From a virus, in the IMG/VR virus record IMGVR_UViG_3300032163_000001, positions 110,249 to 174,248 of that record: a DNA stretch of 64,000 bases, one strand, 5' to 3'. Both the position numbers and the translations under genes were made by a program. The stretch's first letter is position 1, and the number at the start of each line of letters is the position of its first letter. The notes below the pieces were generated by a model. That model saw only the letters and a program-made list of their open reading frames with translations, ran no database searches and had not been told where the DNA came from. Below, piece after piece: positions 30,774-63,095 of this stretch.

Positions 30774-33245
30774 ATGGCGGCTCCACAAGAAAGTAATGTA
30801 GTATTATCACCAAATGAGTTTGTATTTGTTCAAGACTCTACGAAAGGAGAGATTAAGTGTTTAGCAGGACCTTACAAAACAGGTCTTACTGGTGAAGATT
30901 TTCCAGTCATATTTAATAAAGATTCAAAAAAGTTTGAAAAAGTAGATCTTTACAAAGCTACTCAACTTTTTGCTATTGCACCTGAAGGTTGGTATATTAT
31001 TTTGAAAAATCCAGCTGGACAATACCCTGATCCAGGAAAAGCAAATATCCCTATTCCACTTAATATGGGCAGAAAAATTAACATTCCAGGTCCAGTTAGT
31101 TTTGCTTTATGGCCTGGTCAAATGAAAAAAGTAGTCCAGGGCCATCACCTTCGATCAAATCAATATTTATTAGTTCGAGTTTATGATGAAGGTGAAGCTA
31201 TAAAGAACTTAGATAAAGCAATTATCAAACGAGTAGAAACTGAACCACCAGAGAAAAAAGAAGCTCCTCAAGAATCTAAAGTAGAGAAAAAAGAAGAAAT
31301 CAAAAAATCTGAGTTTGCTGTATCAGATTTAACAATGGGAAAACTTCTAATTATTAAAGGAACAGATGTAGCATTCTATATTCCTCCAACTGGTATTGAA
31401 GTAGTAGCTCCAGAAGATAATAAATATGTTAGAGAAGCAGTAACTTTAGAAACTTTAGAATACTGTATTCTTCTAAATGAAAATGGCAATAAAAGATATA
31501 TCAAAGGTCCAGCTGTAGTTTTTCCAGAACCAACTGAAACTTTCATTCAATCTAATGGAAAGAAAGTATTTAAAGCATATGAACTCAACGAAATATCTGG
31601 TCTTTATCTTAAAGTCATCTCAGCATATAGTGAAGATGATAAAGAATATGAAGTAGGACAAGAATTATTTATCACTGGTGCAGAACAAGCGATTTATTAT
31701 CCAAGACCAGAACATGCGATTATAAAATATGGAGATCAAGAAATCCATCATGGAATTGCTATCCCAGCTGGTGAAGGTAGGTACGTCCTCGATAGACTTA
31801 GTGGGTCAATTTTATTAAAGAAAGGTCCATGTGTTTTTTTACCAGATCCGAGACACCAAGTAATTGTTAGAAGAATTTTAGATTTAAGTACAGTTGATCT
31901 ATGGTATCCGGGGAACCTAGAAGCTAGAGAGTATAACTCTTTTTTATTGAACATGCTGCAAGAAACTAGGGGTTTTGCGCCAAAAGAGGGAGTTAATTAT
32001 ATAGACCAACAAATGTATTCTTCTAGAGTAGCACCTCAAGCAAAAGGTTTTGTGGCTGACGAAGTCAAACGAAAAAATGTATACACACCCCCTCGAACAA
32101 TCACTTTAGATACTAAATATGAAGGAGTTCCAATCATCAAAGTTTGGACCGGTTATGCTGTATTAATAACTAGTAAAACTGGAAAAAGAGAAATGGCTAT
32201 TGGACCAACTCCGGTTTTACTACAATATGATGAAACTTTAGAATTTATGGAACTTTCTACAGGAACTCCAAAAAGTGATACTAACTTACATAAGACTGTT
32301 TACCTTAGAGTGTTAAACAATAAAGTTTCAGACATAGTCAAAGCTGAAACTAAAGATCTTTGTCCCATTAGTATACAAGTTTCATATCGAGTGAATTTTG
32401 AAGGAGAAACTAGTAATTGGTTTAACGTTGAAAACTATGTAAAGTTCTTAACAGATCATTTAAGGTCTTTAATTAGAAGTAATATTAAACAATATGGAAT
32501 TGAAGAGTTCTACTCAAATTCAATTTCTATTGTTAGAGATTGTGTTTTGGGAAAGTCAGATGGAGAAAAGAGACCAGGAAGAGCATTTGATGAAAATGGG
32601 ATGAGAGTTTATGAGTGTGAAGTTTTAAACGTTGAAATTAGTAATGATACTGTTAAAAGGATGTTAACTGATGCTCAAACTGTATCTGTACAAAACACAA
32701 TTAACTTAGCAAAGAGCAGAAGTAATCTATCATTTACGACAGAAAATGAAGATATCAAAAGAAAAATTGAAGGAGAAGTACATAAAAGTTTTATTAGTTC
32801 CTCAGATATAAAGATTGATTCAACAAAGAGGATACTAATAGAAAATTTAGAAAAGATTAAATCATCATATAAAGAAACGATTGAAAATATTAACTACTCT
32901 TTAGAAAAAGTCAAATTAACGGAAGGTGTTACAACTCAAGAGGTTTCCAATCTTAAAATTCGATCCGACTATGATTATAAAGTCAATCAACAAGACCAAA
33001 TCTTAGGACTAGAAAAACTTAAAGCAGAAAACGAAGCTGAAATTAAGAAAGTTGAAGCCGTCTCAAAAGATTTAATTGCAGCTCTGCAGTCTTTTGGTGA
33101 TCAGATTGCTCTAGAGAAAGTTACTCAATCACTAGCTCCTCTGGCTTTACTTGGTGGAGGTTCAATAGCTGACGTAGTTAATAAACTACTAAAAGGAACA
33201 GTTCTTGAAGGGATTTTGGCTAAAAAAGTTAAAGAAGTAACGTAG
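30774..33245 (+). CDS. Major vault protein (MVP) homologue: N-terminal MVP-repeat domains, SPFH/band-7 shoulder, C-terminal cap-helix-like coiled coil
   Basis: Repeats such as LYLKVISAYSEDDKEYEVGQELFITGAEQAIYYPRPEHAII resemble human MVP [41 protein letters not shown]. Shoulder MAIGPTPVLLQYDETLEFMELSTGTPK ... ISIQVSYRVNFE ... FNVENYVKFLTDHLRSLIRSNIKQYGIEEFYSNSISIVRDCVLG resembles MVP [27 protein letters not shown] ... LQLQLAYNWHFE ... [44 protein letters not shown]. C-terminal ALQSFGDQIALEKVTQSLAPLALLGGGS resembles MVP [28 protein letters not shown]. Length 823 aa versus 893 for human MVP. Confidence 0.7.
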   Translation: MAAPQESNVVLSPNEFVFVQDSTKGEIKCLAGPYKTGLTGEDFPVIFNKDSKKFEKVDLYKATQLFAIAPEGWYIILKNPAGQYPDPGKANIPIPLNMGRKINIPGPVSFALWPGQMKKVVQGHHLRSNQYLLVRVYDEGEAIKNLDKAIIKRVETEPPEKKEAPQESKVEKKEEIKKSEFAVSDLTMGKLLIIKGTDVAFYIPPTGIEVVAPEDNKYVREAVTLETLEYCILLNENGNKRYIKGPAVVFPEPTETFIQSNGKKVFKAYELNEISGLYLKVISAYSEDDKEYEVGQELFITGAEQAIYYPRPEHAIIKYGDQEIHHGIAIPAGEGRYVLDRLSGSILLKKGPCVFLPDPRHQVIVRRILDLSTVDLWYPGNLEAREYNSFLLNMLQETRGFAPKEGVNYIDQQMYSSRVAPQAKGFVADEVKRKNVYTPPRTITLDTKYEGVPIIKVWTGYAVLITSKTGKREMAIGPTPVLLQYDETLEFMELSTGTPKSDTNLHKTVYLRVLNNKVSDIVKAETKDLCPISIQVSYRVNFEGETSNWFNVENYVKFLTDHLRSLIRSNIKQYGIEEFYSNSISIVRDCVLGKSDGEKRPGRAFDENGMRVYECEVLNVEISNDTVKRMLTDAQTVSVQNTINLAKSRSNLSFTTENEDIKRKIEGEVHKSFISSSDIKIDSTKRILIENLEKIKSSYKETIENINYSLEKVKLTEGVTTQEVSNLKIRSDYDYKVNQQDQILGLEKLKAENEAEIKKVEAVSKDLIAALQSFGDQIALEKVTQSLAPLALLGGGSIADVVNKLLKGTVLEGILAKKVKEVT

Positions 33246-37823: not shown

Positions 37824-38360
37824 ATGCATTTAGTTGGGATCATCGGTAAAAAAGGAAGTGGGAAATCCGAGTGTTCAAAAATTTTGTGTGAAAAATATAG
37901 TTTTCAGAGGACTTCGTTCGCTGATAAACTTAAGCAAACTGTATCAGATCTTTTCGATATTCCCTTAAACTTTCTTTATGATCCCAAACTTAAAGAAACG
38001 TATGATAATAGATGGGGAAAAACTTACAGAGAAATTATGCAACTTTTTGGTACCGAAGTTGGTAGATGTATTTATAATGACATATGGGTGTATCACGTTG
38101 AGAAACACTTATTACAAAATCCTGATCTTAGTTTTGTTATAGATGACGTTAGATTTAAAAATGAAGCTGTTTTAATCAAAAAACTCAATGGTTTATTAAT
38201 AAAAGTAGTGCGACCATCTAATGACATTCAAAAAGATTTTCATAAATCAGAAACAGAACAAGATGAAATTGAAGTAGATATAACTATCTTAAATAACTCA
38301 TCTAAAGAAGATCTATATAATACAGTCAATCAAGTTTACCTTGAATTTTGTAACAAATAA
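37824..38360 (+). CDS. Deoxynucleoside monophosphate kinase (T4 gp1-like)
   Basis: P-loop GIIGKKGSGKS. FADKLK, REIMQLFGTEVG and LIKVVRP align with T4 gene 1 (VIHVVRP). Confidence 0.65.
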   Translation: MHLVGIIGKKGSGKSECSKILCEKYSFQRTSFADKLKQTVSDLFDIPLNFLYDPKLKETYDNRWGKTYREIMQLFGTEVGRCIYNDIWVYHVEKHLLQNPDLSFVIDDVRFKNEAVLIKKLNGLLIKVVRPSNDIQKDFHKSETEQDEIEVDITILNNSSKEDLYNTVNQVYLEFCNK

Positions 38361-38428
38361 AATTATATCAGATATCTATAGCACTAAAACTATTGTAAAG
38401 ATAATACGTTGAAAGGGAGGTGAAAACA

Positions 38429-39352
38429 TTGAGCTTAAATGAATTAATAGGTAGAAAATCAGTTGGTCGTCCTTGTGTCCCTACTTTAAATTTCATAGTA
38501 GGAAATAGACAATGTAACATGGAGTGTAAATATTGTATTTCTAAAATGACGAAGGCTGAGTTATCTAAACGAGGAGAGGTTTCTCCTTTATGGTATAGAA
38601 ATAGACGTTTAGCTTTTAGCGTAGCAAAGAAGTTTAGTACTGATACAGTGTTAATCACAGGAAAAGGAGAACCAACTATCTGGAAAACAGAATTACTAGA
38701 TACTATAGCAAGAGCTAGTGACGAAGGATTTATTACAGAACTTCAAACAAATGGAGTTTTATTAGATGAATCTTATTGTATTCATCTTGCTGGAGCAGGT
38801 CTTAATACTATAGCTATTAGTAGAGTCACAGTTGATACAGCTACGAATAATTGGATATGTGATCCTATACATTTTAGTACTCCAAATTTACACCAGTTAA
38901 TTCCAATGATCCAAAGACTTGAAATAAAGATGAACATTCGAATTACTTTTGTAGCTATGAAAGGTTACAATGACTCAGTTGAAAAGATAGAGAAAACATG
39001 TCTTTGGGCTTTATCGAATGGAGTTAAACAAGTTACTATTAGAAGAATGGGGATGCCAAATCTTAGTTCAATTGAAAGTTTAGATAGTGCATTCGAGATC
39101 GAAAAATTTGTAACAGATAACCTTGTTCCAGATGAAGAATGGAAAAAGATCATAGATTTCTTTATGAAAGAATACACTATTTTAAGAGTTTTTGACTGGG
39201 GCTCAATCAGCTGGTCTATTAATGGAGTCCAGTGTTTAATAGCTGATTGTTTAACAGTGCCAGGATTAGATGGCACAATCAGGTATCTTATATATTATCC
39301 TGATGGTCATTTAAGATATAGTTGGGAACACGATTCTACAATAATTTTTTGA
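38429..39352 (+). CDS. Radical SAM enzyme (CxxxCxxC; viperin/MoaA-like core), function unknown; start uncertain (TTG 38429 or GTG 38420)
   Basis: RQCNMECKYC, GKGEP glycine motif, LQTNGVLLDE and LNTIAISRVTVD resemble viperin IVSNGSLIRE / LDILAISCDSFD and MoaA. Confidence 0.6.
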   Translation: MSLNELIGRKSVGRPCVPTLNFIVGNRQCNMECKYCISKMTKAELSKRGEVSPLWYRNRRLAFSVAKKFSTDTVLITGKGEPTIWKTELLDTIARASDEGFITELQTNGVLLDESYCIHLAGAGLNTIAISRVTVDTATNNWICDPIHFSTPNLHQLIPMIQRLEIKMNIRITFVAMKGYNDSVEKIEKTCLWALSNGVKQVTIRRMGMPNLSSIESLDSAFEIEKFVTDNLVPDEEWKKIIDFFMKEYTILRVFDWGSISWSINGVQCLIADCLTVPGLDGTIRYLIYYPDGHLRYSWEHDSTIIF

Positions 39353-40977: not shown

Positions 40978-42141
40978 ATGATAATTAATTCGATTCTTGA
41001 CAACGATTTATACAAGTTCACAATGCAACAAGCCGTTTGCCAACTGTATCCATCTGCTCACGCTAGATACGAATTTATTAACAGAGGCAAAACGATATTT
41101 CCACCTGACTTTGATCGTAAATTAGAAAGTGAAGTTAGATATTTTAGTGAATTTAAACTTGGTAAATATGAAAGGCATTTTCTTAATGATATCTATTTTC
41201 TTTATCCTCCCTATATAGACTTCCTTGATGGTTATAAATATAATCCAAGCGAAGTTCAAATAGAACAAAAGCATGGGGATTTAAAGTTAATAGTTGAAGG
41301 TCCTTGGTATAGGGCTATTTTATGGGAAGTACCTCTACTTGCTTTAATCAGTGAACTGTACTTTAAAGAAATAGGGGATATTGGTCCTTTCGCAGGTTAT
41401 GAATCAATAGCTAAAGGAAAAGCAGCTAGATTAAGAGATATTGGTGCTAAATTTGCTGACTTCGGAACTAGGAGAAGGTATTCCTATGAAGTTCAAAACC
41501 ATGTCATTGGGGCTTTAGAAAGTGGAGGAGGTATCTTCTTTAATGGAACTAGTAACGTTTATTTTGCTATGCAACATCAAGTTAGGGCAATAGGCACTCA
41601 GGCGCATGAGTGGATGATGTTTCATGCGTCACAATATGGTTTTCATCTAGCTAACCAGATTTCGATGGAAAAATGGGTGGACACTTATCAAGGAGACTTA
41701 GGTATTGCTTTAGCTGATACTTATACTTCAGATGCTTTTTTCAAGTCGTTTAATACAAAGTTCTCTAAACTTTATGATGGCGTGAGACAAGACTCTGGAG
41801 ATCCAATAGAATTTGCAGATAAAGCAATTAAACATTATGAAAAATTAAGAATAGACCCAACAACTAAAACCATTGTTTTTAGTGATGGGTTAGATGTAAA
41901 CAAAGTAGAAGAAATTGAGAAACACTGTAGAGGAAAGATTAGGACTTCCTACGGGATAGGGACTAACCTAACGAATGACGTAGGAGTCAAACCTTTAAAT
42001 ATTGTTATAAAAATGACTGCGTGTAAATCTACTCTTAGTGATCCTTGGACTAATACATGCAAATTGTCTGACGTTCCCACTAAATATACTGGAGATCCTG
42101 AAATGATAAAACTATGTAAACAAGTTTTGGAGATACAATAG
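40978..42141 (+). CDS. pncB: Nicotinate phosphoribosyltransferase (PncB)
   Basis: DNDLYKFTMQQAV, GPWYRAILWEVPLLALISE, FGTRRRYSYEVQ, IGTQAHEWMMFH, VRQDSGDP and KPLNIVIKM align motif-for-motif with E. coli PncB. SD AGAGGAGG. Confidence 0.8.
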   Translation: MIINSILDNDLYKFTMQQAVCQLYPSAHARYEFINRGKTIFPPDFDRKLESEVRYFSEFKLGKYERHFLNDIYFLYPPYIDFLDGYKYNPSEVQIEQKHGDLKLIVEGPWYRAILWEVPLLALISELYFKEIGDIGPFAGYESIAKGKAARLRDIGAKFADFGTRRRYSYEVQNHVIGALESGGGIFFNGTSNVYFAMQHQVRAIGTQAHEWMMFHASQYGFHLANQISMEKWVDTYQGDLGIALADTYTSDAFFKSFNTKFSKLYDGVRQDSGDPIEFADKAIKHYEKLRIDPTTKTIVFSDGLDVNKVEEIEKHCRGKIRTSYGIGTNLTNDVGVKPLNIVIKMTACKSTLSDPWTNTCKLSDVPTKYTGDPEMIKLCKQVLEIQ

Positions 42142-55298: not shown

Positions 55299-56687
55299 TC
55301 ATATTTTTAAACCAGGGGTAAAAAGTAAAGTTTCACCCGTCAAATCAGTAAATTCATCTTTAGATAGAAACTTTTTTATTATATAATAGCAAAATTCTTC
55401 ATCTAAATTAGTTAACATTTCAATAGACTTTAAGATACTATTAGATTTTGATGTTTGTTTCTTAGTTACTTTTCCGTCATTCATATCAGAAACGATACTA
55501 GATGCTTTTCTATTAAATTCTTCAAGATTTCCACTTTCGTAAATTGCATATATACTAAGCGCTTGTTCCCTAAGAAAATCTTGTATCTTAGAATACATAT
55601 AGAGGGTTTGTAACATTGAATATATTTTCACTCTTTCAAAGAAAGTTCCAGTTTCTTCAGAATATACTTGTTCCATTTTAATATCTTTAAAGCCAAATTT
55701 ACAAAGTTCTTGTAGTGATTCTCTATATACATCTATCACTTTCTTTTCTCCCCAGTATCTCATTTCTAGAGAAGAAGATCTTATATTTAATCTTTTTACT
55801 TTACCATCTTCTAAAATTGGCAGAAGTCTCCCTATCATTAATCCTTTAAAAACCCCTGAAGAATCATACGTTATTTCTAGATCTATTTCGTGAACTTTTT
55901 GGACGTGTAATTTAAACAGTTCATAGAAAAAAATATCTCTAAAACCAGCTCCACCAAGAATATGAAAATATAGTTTCTTTCTATCAAACTTTTTAGCTCT
56001 ATTTATAAGAGGAATTAGAGGTAGAACATAAATGATACATGGAATACCAGTGTCTGATGCCATATTAGCTACAATGCCACCAGTAGCATGATACTTAAAT
56101 TTATTAAATAAATCATTCTCATCTAAGATTTTAGTATAAATTTCCCACAACTTGGGTGTTCTAAAATGGTGAATATAAATTATTTTTTCTCTAGCATCAT
56201 CTGGTAAATTAGATGCTTCAATATACGACTTTTCATTCATCTTATAAACATCATCAAAAGATTCAAAAATCTTGCATCCTGGTCCTGGAGGGATATCTAA
56301 GATAAAAGCTCGATCATAAACATCTTTATGAACTTGTACAAATTCATAATAAATTTTATGTAGAAGCTCAATTTCTCTTTTATCTAACAAACCAATTGAT
56401 GCTTGGAAACCTCCTGAGTCTGTCATAAAAATACAGTTATCAAGAAATCCATAACCCCTACACTTTTTAAAAAGAGCAGCTTCTTGTTCGGCATATTTTG
56501 AATGATTTTTTCTCCCTCCAAAACCACTTCCAAATGAATGTAAAAACTTATCACATGTTGAAAGAAAGAAATCATTCAAAGTTTTTTTAGTGAAATTATT
56601 ATCAAACTCCTTACTCTTAGTAATAAAGGAATCCATAAAGTCAGCTAAGGTTTCAAACCCTGCACATGTAAAGCCACAATTAGTCAC
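55299..56687 (-). CDS. dpdA: tRNA-guanine transglycosylase-family protein, DpdA-like DNA 7-deazaguanine transglycosylase
   Basis: IFMTDSGGFQASI matches the TGT catalytic ILTDSGGFQVFSL motif. ATGGIVANM resembles YAVGGLAVGE. 462 aa. Adjacent to queE. Confidence 0.65.
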   Translation of the reverse strand: MTNCGFTCAGFETLADFMDSFITKSKEFDNNFTKKTLNDFFLSTCDKFLHSFGSGFGGRKNHSKYAEQEAALFKKCRGYGFLDNCIFMTDSGGFQASIGLLDKREIELLHKIYYEFVQVHKDVYDRAFILDIPPGPGCKIFESFDDVYKMNEKSYIEASNLPDDAREKIIYIHHFRTPKLWEIYTKILDENDLFNKFKYHATGGIVANMASDTGIPCIIYVLPLIPLINRAKKFDRKKLYFHILGGAGFRDIFFYELFKLHVQKVHEIDLEITYDSSGVFKGLMIGRLLPILEDGKVKRLNIRSSSLEMRYWGEKKVIDVYRESLQELCKFGFKDIKMEQVYSEETGTFFERVKIYSMLQTLYMYSKIQDFLREQALSIYAIYESGNLEEFNRKASSIVSDMNDGKVTKKQTSKSNSILKSIEMLTNLDEEFCYYIIKKFLSKDEFTDLTGETLLFTPGLKI

Positions 56688-56978: not shown

Positions 56979-57653
56979 CTATGTGAAATTATAGACAATA
57001 TGCATTCTATCCGAAATGCAAAAGTTATACTTTTCTGCCATGTCTAAAACAACTTCAGAATTACCAATTAGTTCATCTCTAGTCTTTCCTTGTGGCATAA
57101 GATAAACTCTAAGGTTTGGAAAATTTAGCACCTTCAAGAAATCTAAATATTCATAAATCAACTCTTTATCTTCACATACTAATTTAATATAAACTCGTTC
57201 ATCATTCATTATTTCTTTACTTAGTTTCATATAGAAACCAAGATCTTCGTTTGTAAATATTTTAGGAGACAATATAAATCGAACCTTTTTCACTGGATCT
57301 ACTTTCTTAATTAAACCAACTAAATTACAACCATTAGTCTCTACATTATAAATTGGAGCATTTACACCATTTATTAAAGATATTGTCTGATTTAAATTTA
57401 AGTTAAAAGTTGGTTCTCCACCTGTAATCAATAACCCACAATTATGTTCATCTACAATATTCTGGATATCTCTTAGAGCATAATCTGCTTCATTAGAAAT
57501 CCTCATCTTAACTAAAGTATCACAAAATGGACATGGTGTTCCTGCAGATACTCTTGAGCACCTCTTAAATCTAAGAATTATCATTGGTTGTCCTACATCT
57601 TTTCCTTCTCCTTGAAAACTTAGAAAATTTTCTATAAGTCTAACCTTTGACAT
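56979..57653 (-). CDS. queE: 7-carboxy-7-deazaguanine synthase (QueE, radical SAM)
   Basis: N-terminal ENFLSFQGEGKDVGQPMIILRFKRC matches QueE EMFQTLQGEGYFTGVPAIFIRLQGC. Cys cluster C-x8-C-x2-C then CDT. Confidence 0.7.
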   Translation of the reverse strand: MSKVRLIENFLSFQGEGKDVGQPMIILRFKRCSRVSAGTPCPFCDTLVKMRISNEADYALRDIQNIVDEHNCGLLITGGEPTFNLNLNQTISLINGVNAPIYNVETNGCNLVGLIKKVDPVKKVRFILSPKIFTNEDLGFYMKLSKEIMNDERVYIKLVCEDKELIYEYLDFLKVLNFPNLRVYLMPQGKTRDELIGNSEVVLDMAEKYNFCISDRMHIVYNFT

Positions 57654-57666
57654 AATTTCTCCTTTC

Positions 57667-60600
57667 TCAAAACTTTAAGATGTTTTCATTTCTTCCTATT
57701 AACGGTTCTAGCATCAGTTTATATCTGTCAACCCATGAAAACTTAATCATTTCTTTTATATCTATATTGTAATAATTTGGTAGAGAAAGTTCTTCATCCG
57801 GTAAACATATAACATCTAACTTCTTATTTTTAGATAAAAATTCTTTACTGTATCGTTCTAAAACTTCTTTAGGAGCTATTTGATCATTTATTCCATTTAT
57901 CTTAAATAAATATCCTTTCGAACCATGAGCAAATATTTGATATTCTAAAACATTCCAGTTCAAAAAACCAATTACGTTTTGCGGAATCCTTTTATAATCA
58001 TCTAAATCTTTAGTAAAAGATGCTGGTCTAGCTACACTTTTTTCTCCTCCAGTAACTCTCTGAAAAAATTCTGTTTCTTTTGAATCAATAAATTTTTTAG
58101 TTGCAAACATAGAAAACTTTTCCGACTTCAAAATTAAATCTAAAAGTTCTTTTAGACATTCTTTTGTATAACTTGGATAATCGGATCTTTTAGTATCTAA
58201 ACCCATACTTTTAATTTCATCTGTTTCTGTCCCTTCTTCAGAGATAATGTATATAGAATAATGTTTTTTACTTAAAAATAATCCTCTCTTAATAACTAGT
58301 TCATTCTTTAAATCTAATCTATTATATTGTAAACTAACATTATGCTTTTCAACAAGTTTCTCTACAACATCTTTATTTAAATAAGATCGAATTTGATCAC
58401 ATAAAACTTTTACTTCTGCAACTTTCTCATTTTCATTCTTTCCTTTAATTAAAGAATCTAGACTTAAAAATACAGAATCAGTATCACCAGTAATAACATG
58501 TTCAATCTTTCTATCTAATTCTCCAAACATTTCTTTTTTATTTAATCTAGTTTGTTCAATGTCTTTTTTGACTCTTAGAGATTCAACAAATACGTCAGAA
58601 GAAACAATAGTTGATTTTAAAAATTCTTGACCACTTAAAGTAATACTTATTGCGCAATCTATATTATAAAATCTATAAGCTGCATTACCAAGAACTCCAT
58701 ACATAGCATTCGCTAAAACTTTAAAAACTAACTGTCTAACTTCATACAATTCTTCTTCAGATTTATTCTTTGCTTGTTTTGCTTCGAACATTTTCTTCTT
58801 AACTACTTTTCTAGATTGTAAAATATATTCTAATATTTCACTATAAAATGATAATTCGGTTCTATGAGGTTTAAAGAAACATCCATTTATTGTATATGTT
58901 AAATTAGATTCTATAATTTTCTCTATCAATTGTTCTCTAGTAATTTCCATTTCTTGAAGAGTTAAGTCAGGATCTAATATAACAGAAAGTTTCTCTGGTA
59001 ATTTTTCTGGTTGATAAATAAGATCATACCCAAGTGTATGGTCCTTAAGCTTCATAACAATTGTATTAAAACCAACATTAAATGTTTGAATTATACTAGG
59101 ATATAGTGATGTAAAATCAAAATCAACTATCCATTCATGTAAACCAACCTTAGGTTCTTTTACATAAGCTCCTGCAAAAGCTTCATCTTTTAACTGAACA
59201 TTTGCATTTCTAGAAGCATACCCTTTGGATTTTAACCAAGAAGATACTAAAGAATCTAATTGACCCATTGCATTTAGCGCTGATTGAAACGTACACTTAC
59301 ATATCTTTTTTAACTCACTAGCTAAAGAAATATGTTTAACTTTATCTTCTAATTTAACTGTTAGTAAAACGTCTCTTCTATTGTATTCAATCGCTTTATT
59401 TACATCATCTCTAAACATCTGGGAGAAGTTTGATCCACTATCTAATTTACTTTCTTTTAGTTCTATCTGTGCTATCGTTCCAAGTCTATAGTTTTCTTTC
59501 TTTGTAGGTGTAAAAGTCCTGTATAAAGTTAACTGGTCAAGAATTATAAAACCATAAATATCTGCGTAACCCTTATCTCCATCAATATTTACTTCTCCAA
59601 GTTTAGATAGAAGATCTTTGTTTATACCTAATTTTTCACATCGATTAGTTAAATATGGAATATCAAACCATGAAAGATTCCAACCAGTTATAACGTCTGG
59701 ATCTATTACTTTAATATCCTTTATGAATGTAGTGAGCAAATCTTTTTCACTTTTAAACACAAGAATTTCATCTGATGCTTTTATAGCTTGAAGAGAAGTA
59801 TCTTTTAAAAGAATTCTATTATCCATAACATACGTTACAATTTTATCTTTATAACCATAACTAATCATACAAACTGGATCTTTTGCTTCAGCAATATTAG
59901 GGAACTCTTTCTTAATACTATACACTTCTATATCTAAAAACATTATATTAAGATCCAAATTCTCTTCTTCTGGTTTTTGGATATAATAGTCATTAGAATG
60001 TTTAGTTACTAATTTGAAATCTCCATCATAAGTAACTTCATGGTCAAGTCCATACTTTTCTCTGTATAAAACTTTCATCTGAAATAGTTCATCATACTTC
60101 ATTACTTTTTTAGCTAAAACACCATCAGGTACTTTATAACAATAATAATCATCATTCTCCCTATGAAAAACTTTCTTACTATCTTTATCTTTAAAGATAT
60201 AAAGAACTTGGTTACTTCTATGTAAATATTGAATATCTAAAAGTTTGTAGTCTTTAGTGTAAAACTTATCTTCTATTTTATAAAAATGAATTCCCTTCTT
60301 TTCTAACTTTTCTACTTTCATAGAAGAAGATACAATTCCAGGAATACCCAAATATGCAGATACATATCTCATATCTTGATCAAACTTTTCTTCAAAACTT
60401 CTATTCCTAGAAACATATGAAGGATGGACCGTAAAAAATACGTCATGTTCTTTCCATCGAAACATCTTTCCTCTGAAGCTTGTTATATGAGCATCTTTAT
60501 CAAAAATCTCAAATGCTTTTCCTGCAGTCCCTCCCATTAGAACAATTAGCTTGGCATTACTACACTGTTCTATGATCTTAAAGCAATTTTCTTTACAAAG

Positions 60601-60909
60601 ATCTATAGTTCGATCACTTGGATTTATAGTTGTTTTTCTTTCTTTATCTAATGTCTGACAAAGAACTACGTTCGTCAAAAGATACTTAACACTGTTAAGT
60701 TTATACATACTAAAATATTTTCGAAATAATTGTCCAGTTTTTCCTATAAGTGGAACTTCTTTTTCAACCTCATCTTTCCCTGGATTCTCTGCAACAAAAA
60801 TTACTTTTATTTGATCAAAAGATTCTGCATTTGTTTCAAGTATACAAGACTTCTCTCCAAATAATTCACATGAAGAACAATCAGCAAAACTATTTTTAAT
60901 ACTAAACAT
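57667..60909 (-). CDS. Family B DNA polymerase with N-terminal family-4 uracil-DNA-glycosylase-like domain
   Basis: ITGDTDSVF (Pol C motif YGDTDS). DIEVYS exo I. N-terminal roughly 170 aa carry CSSCELFGEKSC, AENPGKDE (UDG4 GE.PG..ED) and VHPSYV (HPS). Confidence 0.8.
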   Translation of the reverse strand: MFSIKNSFADCSSCELFGEKSCILETNAESFDQIKVIFVAENPGKDEVEKEVPLIGKTGQLFRKYFSMYKLNSVKYLLTNVVLCQTLDKERKTTINPSDRTIDLCKENCFKIIEQCSNAKLIVLMGGTAGKAFEIFDKDAHITSFRGKMFRWKEHDVFFTVHPSYVSRNRSFEEKFDQDMRYVSAYLGIPGIVSSSMKVEKLEKKGIHFYKIEDKFYTKDYKLLDIQYLHRSNQVLYIFKDKDSKKVFHRENDDYYCYKVPDGVLAKKVMKYDELFQMKVLYREKYGLDHEVTYDGDFKLVTKHSNDYYIQKPEEENLDLNIMFLDIEVYSIKKEFPNIAEAKDPVCMISYGYKDKIVTYVMDNRILLKDTSLQAIKASDEILVFKSEKDLLTTFIKDIKVIDPDVITGWNLSWFDIPYLTNRCEKLGINKDLLSKLGEVNIDGDKGYADIYGFIILDQLTLYRTFTPTKKENYRLGTIAQIELKESKLDSGSNFSQMFRDDVNKAIEYNRRDVLLTVKLEDKVKHISLASELKKICKCTFQSALNAMGQLDSLVSSWLKSKGYASRNANVQLKDEAFAGAYVKEPKVGLHEWIVDFDFTSLYPSIIQTFNVGFNTIVMKLKDHTLGYDLIYQPEKLPEKLSVILDPDLTLQEMEITREQLIEKIIESNLTYTINGCFFKPHRTELSFYSEILEYILQSRKVVKKKMFEAKQAKNKSEEELYEVRQLVFKVLANAMYGVLGNAAYRFYNIDCAISITLSGQEFLKSTIVSSDVFVESLRVKKDIEQTRLNKKEMFGELDRKIEHVITGDTDSVFLSLDSLIKGKNENEKVAEVKVLCDQIRSYLNKDVVEKLVEKHNVSLQYNRLDLKNELVIKRGLFLSKKHYSIYIISEEGTETDEIKSMGLDTKRSDYPSYTKECLKELLDLILKSEKFSMFATKKFIDSKETEFFQRVTGGEKSVARPASFTKDLDDYKRIPQNVIGFLNWNVLEYQIFAHGSKGYLFKINGINDQIAPKEVLERYSKEFLSKNKKLDVICLPDEELSLPNYYNIDIKEMIKFSWVDRYKLMLEPLIGRNENILKF

Positions 60910-60912
60910 TAT

Positions 60913-61440
60913 TTATCCCCTAATAATTGAGAAATGTTCAGATATGAAACTTTTGATTTTTATTTGAATTCCTTCTTCTTTCTTCTTCTTTAAGTTCTTA
61001 ATTGCCTTAGCTTTTTCTGGTTTCAAAAGTCCAAGAGAGTCATAGATAGATTTTTTAGAATCTTCATCTTCTCTATCTATAATACTAGACAACAAATTTA
61101 TATCACAACCTTTTAATGTAGGAAATTTCTTCCTCAAAGCTTGAAATAAATCACTATTTTTTTTCGAACTAAAAAATGACAAATTATTTCTTCTAACTCT
61201 AAAGTCTATAATACACTTTTTGATAAACTTAAATAGATCTTCTTTCTCTAGATAAAACACTCCAACATTATTAAAATACTTATCTAAATAATGGTTAAGT
61301 TGTCCATACAACAAAAACATTGAAATAATTCTATTATTACTTATTGGAGAATTGTACTTTAAGAAAACTTCTTTTTGTGGAATTTCTGAAGTTCTACTCC
61401 CGTCAAACAACCATTGGTTAAAGACTTCGTATTCATTCAT
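60913..61440 (-). CDS. Hypothetical protein
   Basis: 175 aa. Confidence 0.4.
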   Translation of the reverse strand: MNEYEVFNQWLFDGSRTSEIPQKEVFLKYNSPISNNRIISMFLLYGQLNHYLDKYFNNVGVFYLEKEDLFKFIKKCIIDFRVRRNNLSFFSSKKNSDLFQALRKKFPTLKGCDINLLSSIIDREDEDSKKSIYDSLGLLKPEKAKAIKNLKKKKEEGIQIKIKSFISEHFSIIRG

Positions 61441-62374
61441 TACTCTCTTCTTTCATAATCCTTATTATATTGTTATAGAAATTATTAATAAGATCCTGAT
61501 TTAATAAGTTAGGAACTGTATCAAGAAAATCAATCCTTAATTCTGATCCTGCAGGGTATAAAAAAGGTTTTGGTAGTAACTCAGGATATGAGAACTTATC
61601 TGGAGCAATAACAGATGTGTTATTCATAACTGCTTCTAGAGCTTGATATCCAAATGTATCTTCATTAGTAGTGATTAATAAAACTTTTCCTTGCGATAGA
61701 AATTTATAATATTCTTTCCATGTTGAACATTCTTTTCTTACTATTTTAGTTTTCAAACTCTTCTCAATAAAACGTTCTAACCTTTTATTGACTTTCTGCC
61801 TACACGGTCTAGAAACCGAAATTATATCATATATCTTCTTTTCTTTAAACGTTTTAAAAGGGGGTTTTGGAAGACCTACAACTTCAGTATTTTTCCATCC
61901 TAGTTTTTCTTGGTGATATTTAGTTGCTACAAACACTTTTTTAAACAATTTTGAATGTCCAGTTTCTACTAACCATTTACTTTTTCTAACTGGAGCAAAA
62001 TAATCAAACGCATTTTTAGATGTTGCGTGACAGAACGCAAAACAATTTTTCATTGGTTTATGATACAAGACATTCGAAAACAAACCAGGAAAAGAAATAT
62101 CAGCTAAAAAGAGAATATCATCATTTTCTAATCTTATATTTAGAAACTGGTGAATTTGTTGATATTCAAAAGAAATAGATTGTTCAACTGGAGAAAATAA
62201 CCTTTTATCCCTATTATCTTCATAATCAGTAAGAGACTCTCCTAAAACAACAACTTCATCAAAATGTTTTATAAACTCTTTAAAAAATTCTCTATGCCAC
62301 CATTCTTGATATCTCATTTTAGCTGGAAACTGAGGAACAAAAATTATTCTGGACATATGATAAAGTTTCTCCAT
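61433..62374 (-). CDS. GT-B fold glycosyltransferase (GT4-like C-terminal E.FG...LEA motif)
   Basis: NEDTFGYQALEAVMNNTSVIAP. 313 aa. Confidence 0.55.
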   Translation of the reverse strand: MEKLYHMSRIIFVPQFPAKMRYQEWWHREFFKEFIKHFDEVVVLGESLTDYEDNRDKRLFSPVEQSISFEYQQIHQFLNIRLENDDILFLADISFPGLFSNVLYHKPMKNCFAFCHATSKNAFDYFAPVRKSKWLVETGHSKLFKKVFVATKYHQEKLGWKNTEVVGLPKPPFKTFKEKKIYDIISVSRPCRQKVNKRLERFIEKSLKTKIVRKECSTWKEYYKFLSQGKVLLITTNEDTFGYQALEAVMNNTSVIAPDKFSYPELLPKPFLYPAGSELRIDFLDTVPNLLNQDLINNFYNNIIRIMKEESNE

Positions 62375-62597: not shown

Positions 62598-63095
62598 TTA
62601 TTTTACTAGCCACTTACACCGCCCTTCAAATAAGTAATATTTACCATCATTCGTCCACAAATCTTTTTGAGATGGATACACTTCATCTAACACTTCTTTC
62701 TTCTTCATCCAATGTTCAACTTCAAAACAATATGGTGCTTGCATATTTATTGAATAGAAAATAACATCAAGACCTGAACGAAGCATGCTTTCTCCTATTG
62801 CACCCCATCTTCTGTGTTGGTAATGACCAGCTTCAGTAGGGTCTGGAAAATAGAGAGTAGTTTTAGGGTTTATGAAAACTGGTGGGATTGAAGCTGTAAA
62901 GTACTGAGAAGTTACATTGTTAAACTTAGACTTAAGAGAAAGAGCTTCTTCTCTTCTAATTATATCAATATTAGTATCTGTATAAACTATACAAATACTT
63001 CTAGACTCATTTGATATGACTGAGAAACAACCAATTAGTTCATCATCAGCGTGGGGAGCCACAATCACAATTCTGTTATTTTCTTCTTTCACCAT
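62598..63095 (-). CDS. PIG-L/LmbE-family N-acetylglucosaminyl deacetylase
   Basis: IVIVAPHADDELIGCFSVI matches the PIG-L AHPDDE..G motif. 165 aa. Confidence 0.6.
   Translation of the reverse strand: MVKEENNRIVIVAPHADDELIGCFSVISNESRSICIVYTDTNIDIIRREEALSLKSKFNNVTSQYFTASIPPVFINPKTTLYFPDPTEAGHYQHRRWGAIGESMLRSGLDVIFYSINMQAPYCFEVEHWMKKKEVLDEVYPSQKDLWTNDGKYYLFEGRCKWLVK

Follow-up and report, generated by a model that had tools for sequence, protein, structure and literature searches.

We analyzed a 64-kb stretch of viral DNA (positions 110,249 to 174,248 of the IMG/VR record IMGVR_UViG_3300032163_000001, a contig of 186 kb), hereafter called the window, and found a gene in which a family-4-type uracil-DNA glycosylase (UDG) domain is fused to the N-terminus of a complete family-B DNA polymerase (PolB). 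The window is a fragment of a T4-like myovirus with a GC content of ~ 31% and carries genes for a gp20-like portal, a gp23-like capsid protein, a prohead protease and a tail sheath. The presence of UDG and PolB in one protein was confirmed. Judged from sequence comparisons, from which we infer activity, substrate and scanned strand, the UDG domain would be functional and directed at uracil and would couple uracil surveillance to the replisome. We assign a probability of about 60% to this reading.

The gene is located on the minus strand from 57667 to 60909, starts with ATG and encodes 1080 amino acids (aa) in a single frame. A preliminary description of the window had given the position of this open reading frame (ORF) correctly but had left out the strand. 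It had also proposed an N-terminal UDG-like domain on a family B polymerase, which was borne out by Pfam, by the fold match and by the homologue clusters. Pfam detected in consecutive order a UDG domain (PF03167, aa 33-175, E 1.4e-16, 61 bits versus a gathering cutoff of 24.3), a PolB exonuclease domain (PF03104, aa 305-465, E 1.7e-24) and a PolB polymerase domain (PF00136, aa 567-954, E 2.1e-40). The gene and its parts are arranged as follows:

57667..60909, minus strand: whole gene of the UDG-PolB fusion, 1080 aa; a single ORF with Pfam matches to UDG, exonuclease and PolB, and at least 119 full-length homologue clusters built alike
60346..60909, minus strand: family-4-type UDG domain, aa 1-188, with the putative [4Fe-4S] ligands C11, C14, C84 and C105; from Pfam, PDB entry 1ui0, AlphaFold2 (AF2)/Foldseek and conservation
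60769..60792, minus strand: UDG motif A AENPGKDE, aa 40-47; from translation and conservation, with residue roles according to PMC5387724
60418..60426, minus strand: UDG motif B H162-P163-S164 (in VHPSYV); from translation, conservation and the alignment to 1ui0
60295..60345, minus strand: variable Lys/Glu-rich linker, aa 189-205, 17 residues, IPGIVSSSMKVEKLEKK; from translation, a mean pairwise identity of 14% and a predicted local distance difference test score (pLDDT) of ~ 52
60010..60294, minus strand: PolB N-terminal domain, aa 206-300, borders approximate; from PHROG 262 (matching from aa 281), Foldseek and a mean identity of 54.5%
59230..60009, minus strand: 3'-5' proofreading exonuclease domain, aa 301-560; from PF03104 and the invariant Exo I-III columns
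57667..59229, minus strand: polymerase palm, fingers and thumb, aa 561-1080; from PF00136, the invariant motifs and the Foldseek match to RB69/T4 gp43 (TMt 0.73-0.80)

The AF2 model of the full-length protein reached a pLDDT of 88.6 and a predicted TM-score (pTM) of 0.75. Its low-confidence parts were the last seven residues and the residues 193-196 within the linker, which were below 50. An internal start at Met197, which would give a polymerase lacking the UDG domain, was rejected because Met197 is not conserved among the homologues.

The N-terminal domain has a bona fide family-4-type UDG fold. A phmmer search of aa 1-200 against the PDB returned the UDGA of T. thermophilus (Tth; 1ui0) as top match (E 8.5e-13), followed by TM0511 of T. 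maritima, the S. tokodaii UDG, the UDG domain of the phage phiLo family-A polymerase (PolA; 9qhs, E 4.7e-7) and UdgX. An AF2 model of aa 1-195, built with 45 homologues (pLDDT 89.6, pTM 0.88), likewise had Tth UDGA 1ui0 as its top Foldseek match (E 2e-14, TM 0.77). Further matches were other family-4 UDGs, UdgX and the phiLo domain (E 3.6e-9), and families 5, 3, 2 and 1 were more distant. In the alignment to 1ui0 the four Cys, E41, N80 and the HPS motif paired with their counterparts. The profile search and the structure prediction suggested in the preliminary description both led to UDG; fold and profile matches were clear and the catalytic residues were kept, where a missing UDG fold or degenerate residues had been named as arguments against the assignment. 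NCBIfam scores were alike (~ 65-67 bits) for the archaeal family-4 model, the general family-4 model and the UdgX model (TIGR03914, 64.6 bits versus a cutoff of 189.95). Since all of them stayed below the cutoffs, they point to a divergent subfamily inside the family-4/UdgX branch.

According to mutagenesis and structure of Tth UDGa, the uracil pocket consists of E41, G42, E47, F54, N80 and H155, with N80 reading uracil O4/N3 and H155 reading O2 (PMC5387724). We compared these positions among 119 homologue clusters with 46-69% identity, here named clade 1. E41 was kept in 118 of the 119 clusters, E47 in all of them and N80 in 116. The H162-P-S of motif B, whose His aligns with the leaving-group-stabilising His155, was kept in 118-119. 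At two positions the clade differs from Tth UDGa: G42 is replaced by Asn (117/119) and F54 by Leu (118/119). Consequently, motif A (A-E-N-P-G) misses the family-4 pattern G-E-(G/A)-P-G, with the first Gly changed to Ala and the E-G doublet to E-N, whereas E41, P43, G44 and E47 match family 4. The motifs AENPGKDE and VHPSYV as well as the four-Cys cluster (C11-x2-C14, C84, C105) were located as previously claimed. Because the uracil-reading residues are retained, the simplest substrate would be uracil, originating from deaminated cytosine or misincorporated dUMP, and not a purine.

Compared to the family-4 enzymes 1ui0, TM0511 and S. tokodaii 4zbx, the domain thus has the fold, the four Cys, E41, E47, N80 and H-P-S in common but carries G42N, F54L and a longer loop after C84, scores under the curated family cutoff and is fused to a polymerase instead of being free-standing. 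The loop after C84 (consensus CQTLNxDGTTGNP) is ~ 5 residues longer than in Tth UDGA in clade 1 and has no conserved His. Among 150 diverse relatives, Ala40 pairs with Leu54 and Gly40 with Phe54. This covariation suggests a compensated packing change rather than a loss of function, and the fixed E-N/Leu54 pocket represents a natural variant of the well-studied E-G/Phe54 pocket of family 4.

In the alignment the four Cys of 1ui0 are paired with the cysteines C11, C14, C84 and C105, which were kept in 118-119 of the 119 clusters. Family 4 has been described as containing a [4Fe-4S] cluster with four Cys ligands, and we infer the same loading for the phage domain, which would equip the B-family replicase of a phage with an Fe-S domain. 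Besides these presumed ligands, three more cysteines (C22, C109 and C116) were kept in at least 94% of the clade-1 sequences.

The UDG domain is under strong constraint and not a remnant. In 52 aligned homologues it was the best-conserved region of the protein, with a mean pairwise identity of 58.5% compared to 46-55% in the N-terminal, exonuclease and polymerase domains of PolB.

The polymerase part is a complete T4/RB69 gp43-type family-B replicase. All top 50 PDB matches of the full-length model in Foldseek were RB69/T4 gp43 (E down to 1.7e-42, TMt 0.69-0.80), and the alignment to RB69 gp43 spanned ~ 950-1000 columns. Invariant in the 52-sequence alignment were D326/E328 of Exo I, D416 of Exo II and Y509/D513 of Exo III. 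The same applied to D596, D598 and S601-P604 of polymerase motif A (D596-F-D598-FTSLYPS), to K730, N734 and Y737-G738 of motif B (K730...N734..YG) and to D809-T-D811-S of motif C (TGD809-T-D811-S). Motif C had been quoted as YGDTDS before, which has to be corrected to TGDTDS. Although gp43 provides the nearest solved polymerase structures, matching exonuclease and polymerase motifs and a phage with similar genes for portal, capsid and protease, only ~ 18-19% of the residues were identical in the structural alignment, gp43 lacks a UDG domain, and the TGDTDS form of motif C sets the protein apart as well. The nearest PolBs of cultured phages had ~ 28% identity by tblastn. The C-terminus (...ILKF) is disordered in the model (residues 1074-1080, pLDDT < 50), its pattern ...I-L-x-F is conserved, and we take it to resemble the clamp-binding tail of gp43. 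If this tail binds the clamp, the UDG domain would not be needed as a processivity factor.

A word-indexed search identified at least 120 clusters with UDG, exonuclease and polymerase, located on contigs of up to 312 kb. At least 119 independent clusters at 90% identity, obtained from JGI, ENA, Logan and NCBI assemblies, encode proteins of ~ 1080 aa with the same architecture. When 1.84 billion representatives were searched exhaustively by phmmer with the UDG domain, 248 matches were obtained at E <= 1e-10. Among the best 150 of these 248, the PolB region was also present in 56, and in all nine sampled, UDG and PolB were confirmed by Pfam. Other long matches of this search were known UDG-PolA fusions, some of them with the A40/L54 signature. 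Three clades could be distinguished:

Clade 1 (with the window gene): motif A AENPG, Leu54, ~ 1080 aa
Clade 2: motif A AEAP(A/S), Leu54, 814-1281 aa; intein-bearing forms and polymerases split into ~ 830 + 266 aa
Clade 3: motif A AEAPG, Leu54, 971-1296 aa; an extra N-terminal extension of 150-190 aa

The PolB identity to the query drops to 30-34% in clades 2 and 3. As the fusion is kept over this distance, the architecture is old. The loop after C84 in the clade-3 protein P0206 (CRPPQNRAP) is identical to that of canonical family 4. A survey of PolB N-termini in relatives, which the preliminary description had recommended, thus showed the fusion to be widespread in metagenomes and carried by at least three PolB clades.

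Several members deviate in length. The UDG-PolB homologues P0028, P0062, P0066, P0072, P0154, P0170 and P0175 have ~ 1220-1570 aa instead of the usual ~ 1080. In P0175 (1223 aa) an intein splicing domain was detected by Pfam, and inteins are suspected by length in the other long homologues. Many clade-2 polymerases are split into genes of ~ 830 and 266 aa, as in locus L012 (5599-8818). A free-standing UDG of 218 aa (P0132) is encoded in locus L001 (8001-8657). It is 45-52% identical over aa 1-233 of the query, so that the match extends ~ 30 residues into the PolB N-terminal domain. The neighbouring gene encodes a FEN-like 5'-3' exonuclease that carries a GIY-YIG domain, and no PolB was present within 8 kb. 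A further, large set (P0190-P0292) comprises proteins of 440-560 aa in which a C-terminal family-4-like UDG with a MUG-like motif A G/A-(L/I)-N-P-G follows an N-terminal half of ~ 200 aa that carries no annotation. The best members of this set outrank most canonical family-4 enzymes in phmmer E-value to the phage domain.

The fusion was searched for among described phages as well. The gene had no megablast match in GenBank phages, and no GenBank phage record covered 80% or more of the whole protein by tblastn. The UDG domain gave only 18 tblastn matches in GenBank phages, all below 30% identity and all of them PolA-fused or free UDGs; in the matching loci L008, L009 and L010 no PolB was present beside the UDG. 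A fold search of BFVD returned only UDG-less PolBs of ~ 840-910 aa. In the searchable literature no description of a UDG-PolB fusion was found, the term 'UDG-PolB' occurred in no paper, and only work on PolA was retrieved. A survey of PolB diversity from 2020 makes no mention of UDG. The preliminary description had stated that UDG-polymerase fusions are known for family A, which is correct according to the literature (phiLo, YerA41, SPO1, N4-like phages), and had named none on a T4-like PolB, in line with the missing family-B example in GenBank phages, BFVD and searchable literature. Apparently, UDG-PolB has been anticipated conceptually but not described. With its three clades the family is large, entirely uncultured and seemingly absent from reviews of PolB diversity.

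Coupling of UDG to a replicase has previously been found in two forms, the covalent family-A fusion and the multi-subunit complex with the family-B polymerase of pox- and herpesviruses. For the first form, the polymerases of phiLo and YerA41 have been demonstrated by biochemistry and cryo-EM to excise template deoxyuridine (dU) five nucleotides ahead of the active site, to bypass the resulting abasic site and to recruit PolX and ligase (bioRxiv 10.1101/2025.03.26.645540). According to the same study, pox-, herpes- and African swine fever viruses couple UDG in trans to a B-family polymerase, and the mpox UDG is located at the equivalent place and scans the 5' template in front of the polymerase; a fused B-family enzyme is not mentioned there.

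The window protein and the UDG-PolA proteins (phiLo, YerA41, SPO1; 9qhs; SP15-/SPO1-like) both carry an N-terminal family-4-type UDG on a replicative polymerase, and both retain C-x2-C, E-x-P-G and H-P-S. However, the polymerase belongs to family B here and to family A there, so that the window protein is not a member of that group. Clade 1 combines E-N with Leu54, phiLo E-A with Phe. Whereas the UDG of UDG-PolA reportedly sits rigidly packed between exonuclease and polymerase, here it is attached by a variable linker of low model confidence. Phages of the phiLo type carry thymidine hypermodification, PolX and ligase genes, of which none was found in the window. The N4-like UDG-PolA proteins (cluster 17) are likewise phage replicases with a family-4 UDG homologue at the N-terminus, but those domains have lost catalytic residues and the beta-hairpin and are inactive, while SPO1-like domains have intact residues (Czernecki et al. 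2023). The catalytic residues are retained in the window domain.

Poxvirus (E9/F8-A20/A22-D4/E4) and herpesvirus complexes likewise join a B-family viral replicase to a UDG. In these eukaryotic viruses a bridging subunit joins the two in trans, whereas here the link is covalent. The UDG of poxviruses and herpesviruses belongs to family 1 (UNG-type, no Fe-S cluster) and is part of the processivity factor, too. A different solution is known from archaea, whose PolB senses template uracil by its N-terminal region with a 'read-ahead' pocket, according to the introduction of PMC7544198. A paper cited there is quoted as reporting that uracil recognition is limited to archaeal PolBs. The archaeal pocket lies within the N-terminal domain and only binds and stalls, while here a glycosylase fold of its own has been added to the polymerase. 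In T4-like phages, a covalent UDG-PolB would represent the missing combination and a 'Rosetta-stone' link for the recruitment of UDG by B-family replicases of bacterial viruses.

Based on these data we propose that a large, uncultured T4-like phage uses the gene product as its replicative family-B DNA polymerase, with the UDG domain presumably tethered by the flexible ~ 17-residue linker to the start of the PolB N-terminal domain. The tethered domain would flip out and probably excise uracil from DNA passing the replisome, with misincorporated dUMP or deaminated cytosine as likely sources. Uracil may be met on the single-stranded template entering by the N-terminal domain or on the duplex that has just been made. 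In B-family polymerases the single-stranded template enters along the PolB N-terminal domain. The topology of the tether is compatible with template scanning in front of the active site, as with phiLo and mpox, and the newly made duplex is possible as well. By analogy, the logic of uracil surveillance would be that of the phiLo/YerA41 UDG-PolA and of the pox- and herpesvirus complexes in trans. This reading is supported by clades 2 and 3, which share the E-A doublet of motif A with the phiLo PolA, whose UDG domain excises dU.

A number of observations weigh against replisome-coupled uracil surveillance. The domain stayed under the curated cutoffs of the family-4 models TIGR00758/NF040953 (65.8 versus 125.3 and 66.8 versus 250 bits), and the linker joining it to the polymerase is of low confidence in the AF2 model. 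G42N and F54L are found throughout clade 1, and in Tth UDGa the mutations G42D and F54A led to a ~ 89-fold and ~ 17-fold loss in k2/Km, respectively (PMC5387724). In the PolB-fused protein P0163 (1088 aa) motif A is degenerate (SEYPS) and HPS of motif B is changed to ASD, with the cysteines intact; in at least that lineage the domain can thus persist without catalysis. Furthermore, T4/RB69-type polymerases are strongly blocked by abasic sites, and 2p5o, one of the gp43 structures matched by Foldseek, is presumably connected with this block. Because of such stalling, it would be risky to excise bases from the template in front of the enzyme. AP endonuclease, PolX, dUTPase and ligase were not found among the ~ 70 ORFs of the window, which covers 64 of the 186 kb of the contig. 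If the domain is active, UDG-PolB offers a single-chain model for the coexistence of an abasic-site-sensitive high-fidelity B-family polymerase with a glycosylase.

Part of these observations would also fit a catalytically silent domain that gives the polymerase a structural, DNA-binding or processivity function. We consider this alternative unlikely, although it is the one to be taken most seriously. The two substituted pocket positions are those at which Tth UDGa mutants lose 17- to 89-fold activity, and P0163 keeps domain and cysteines without the catalytic His. In the literature, the UDG-PolA of SPO1 and T5 has been discussed as a possible processivity device, a role proposed for the inactive N4-like domains as well, and vaccinia D4 does not need its glycosylase activity to act in processivity. 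In contrast to the N4-like domains, however, E41, E47, N80 and H-P-S are near-invariant in the 119 clusters and across the three clades, and a silent module is hard to reconcile with UDG being the best-conserved segment of the protein. The covariation of residues 40 and 54 suggests compensated packing, and the C-terminal tail resembling a clamp-binding motif argues against a processivity role.

The preliminary description had assumed a genome with non-canonical purines, in which the domain may recognise, exclude or proofread modified or deaminated bases. Such a function would involve two genes downstream of the polymerase:

56979..57653, minus strand: QueE-like radical-SAM gene directly downstream; from phrog_2076, NCBIfam QueE models and synteny
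55299..56687, minus strand: p462, 462 aa, of unknown family; with DSGGFQ and YDSSG motifs and > 600 homologues

The QueE-like gene matched phrog_2076 (E 3.3e-25) and five NCBIfam QueE models (5e-12 to 2e-5, all under the cutoffs). Beyond it, a Cpn10 gene, the 462-aa ORF and a DnaB-like helicase follow. None of the > 600 homologues of p462 had a Pfam match. Invariant columns are D90, S91, G92 and Q95 (DSGGFQ) and D275, S276 and S277 (YDSSG), ~ 185 residues apart, which to us recall the pair of catalytic Asp motifs in tRNA-guanine transglycosylases (TGT/DpdA). An assignment as DpdA found no support in Pfam, PHROGs and NCBIfam or by tblastn against phages. There was no PDB match by phmmer or profile hmmsearch, and hhalign with E. 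coli TGT aligned only a 20-residue motif at a probability of 11%.

The gene order PolB, QueE-like, p462, DnaB was kept in five loci, three of them distant members of clade 1 and one each from clades 2 and 3, with the QueE-like gene syntenic in L003, L004, L005, L011 and L013 but not in L012. In the latter (clade 2) the split PolB abuts DnaB, and QueE-like gene and p462 are absent. The QueE-like gene is thus a conserved neighbour, and any part in polymerase function would be hypothetical. In two of these loci a gene for ribosomal protein bS21 is located between the QueE-like gene and Cpn10 (L004, 15265-15543; L005, 15409-15645). L004 also carries QueC, dCMP deaminase and ThyX genes, and L005 ThyA, HD and MazG genes.

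The domain could accordingly be read as a retuned glycosylase or base sensor which works with the QueE-like protein and p462 and is directed at deaminated or unmodified purines (hypoxanthine, xanthine, or guanine as opposed to 7-deazaguanine) and not at uracil. We regard this as doubtful. The cassette is found in six of seven loci (the window and five of six related ones) and in all three clades, yet T4-like gene order is generally conserved, so that synteny is weak evidence of coupling. The derived pocket of clade 1 (N42, L54) and the longer loop after C84 would fit a changed substrate, and UDG families 2, 3, 5 and 6 have members which excise deaminated purines. In the family-3 motif G-x-N-P-G the Asn positions the water. 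An Asn at the equivalent of N42 is also the water-positioning residue N18 of family-2 MUG (mentioned in PMC5387724). However, N42 does not correlate with the cassette, as clades 2 and 3 have the same neighbours and an ordinary E-A doublet, and L012 has a UDG-PolB without either neighbour. The uracil readers N80 and H162 are retained, and p462 could not be demonstrated to be a DpdA. As N42 does not track the cassette, p462 fails the DpdA tests and only the QueE-like gene is identifiable, the link to non-canonical purines received no positive support.

That the domain acts as a UdgX-like suicide protein, crosslinking covalently to the abasic site after uracil excision, is very improbable. The NCBIfam scores for UdgX and family 4 are nearly equal (64.6 and 65.8 bits), and UdgX structures, including entries of the H109 mutant, were strong Foldseek matches of the aa 1-195 model. 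In UdgX the crosslink is made by His109 of the KRRIH loop, but the loop after C84 has no conserved His which could take this part, and a covalent suicide reaction would inactivate the replicase.

A merging of two adjacent genes by an assembly or sequencing error, for which short related UDG-only ORFs such as P0132 (218 aa) in L001 might speak, can practically be disregarded in view of a continuous ~ 1080-aa ORF that recurs in four data sources and over 100 independent clusters, an N-terminus conserved from residue 1 and an AF2 model that is confident across the UDG and polymerase parts.

The comparison of the clades also drew attention to a previously unnoticed candidate accessory subunit of 175 aa, encoded directly upstream of the polymerase:

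60913..61440, minus strand: p175, 175 aa, candidate polymerase accessory module; from homology to the clade-3 N-terminal extension and synteny

The ORF ends 3 nt before the start codon of the polymerase. Its product is homologous to and colinear with the 150-190-aa extension ahead of UDG in clade-3 proteins (P0237, P0208, P0206, P0183 and others), and homologues are located upstream of PolB in the other clade-1 loci L003-L005. No known family was identified by Pfam, PHROGs and NCBIfam, and there was no match in the PDB or in GenBank phages. Since p175 is encoded on its own in one lineage but as part of UDG-PolB in clade 3, it is a good candidate for an accessory subunit, and its sequence relationships indicate that it probably serves the polymerase. 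An extended proposal, in which UDG, p175, the QueE-like protein and p462 would form one replisome-coupled unit for base editing and surveillance, with the clade-1 pocket retuned away from uracil, seems hardly probable to us. If it were true, a deaminated or unmodified purine at sites of future 7-deazaguanine exchange would be the candidate substrate, and base excision would be linked mechanistically to DNA hypermodification.

Some other genes of the window should be mentioned. A protein of 823 aa (30774-33245, plus strand) carries a major-vault-protein shoulder (PF11978, E 3e-27) and vault repeats, which is unusual in a phage. A second radical-SAM enzyme is encoded at 38420-39352 (plus strand); its top matches were prokaryotic viperin-like and MoaA models (E 5e-15, under the cutoffs), and genes for a T4 gp1-like dNMP kinase (37824-38360) and for a nicotinate phosphoribosyltransferase (40978-42141) are located nearby. 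Upstream of p175, the ORF at 61433-62374 (minus strand) showed weak similarity to glycosyltransferases (phrog_2170, 6e-5; BshA-like, 0.024) and is kept upstream of PolB in L003-L005. The ORF at 62598-63095 (minus strand, 165 aa) contains an 'APHADDELIG' motif and by eye resembles LmbE/PIG-L deacetylases, so that the two ORFs could be a sugar-modification pair.

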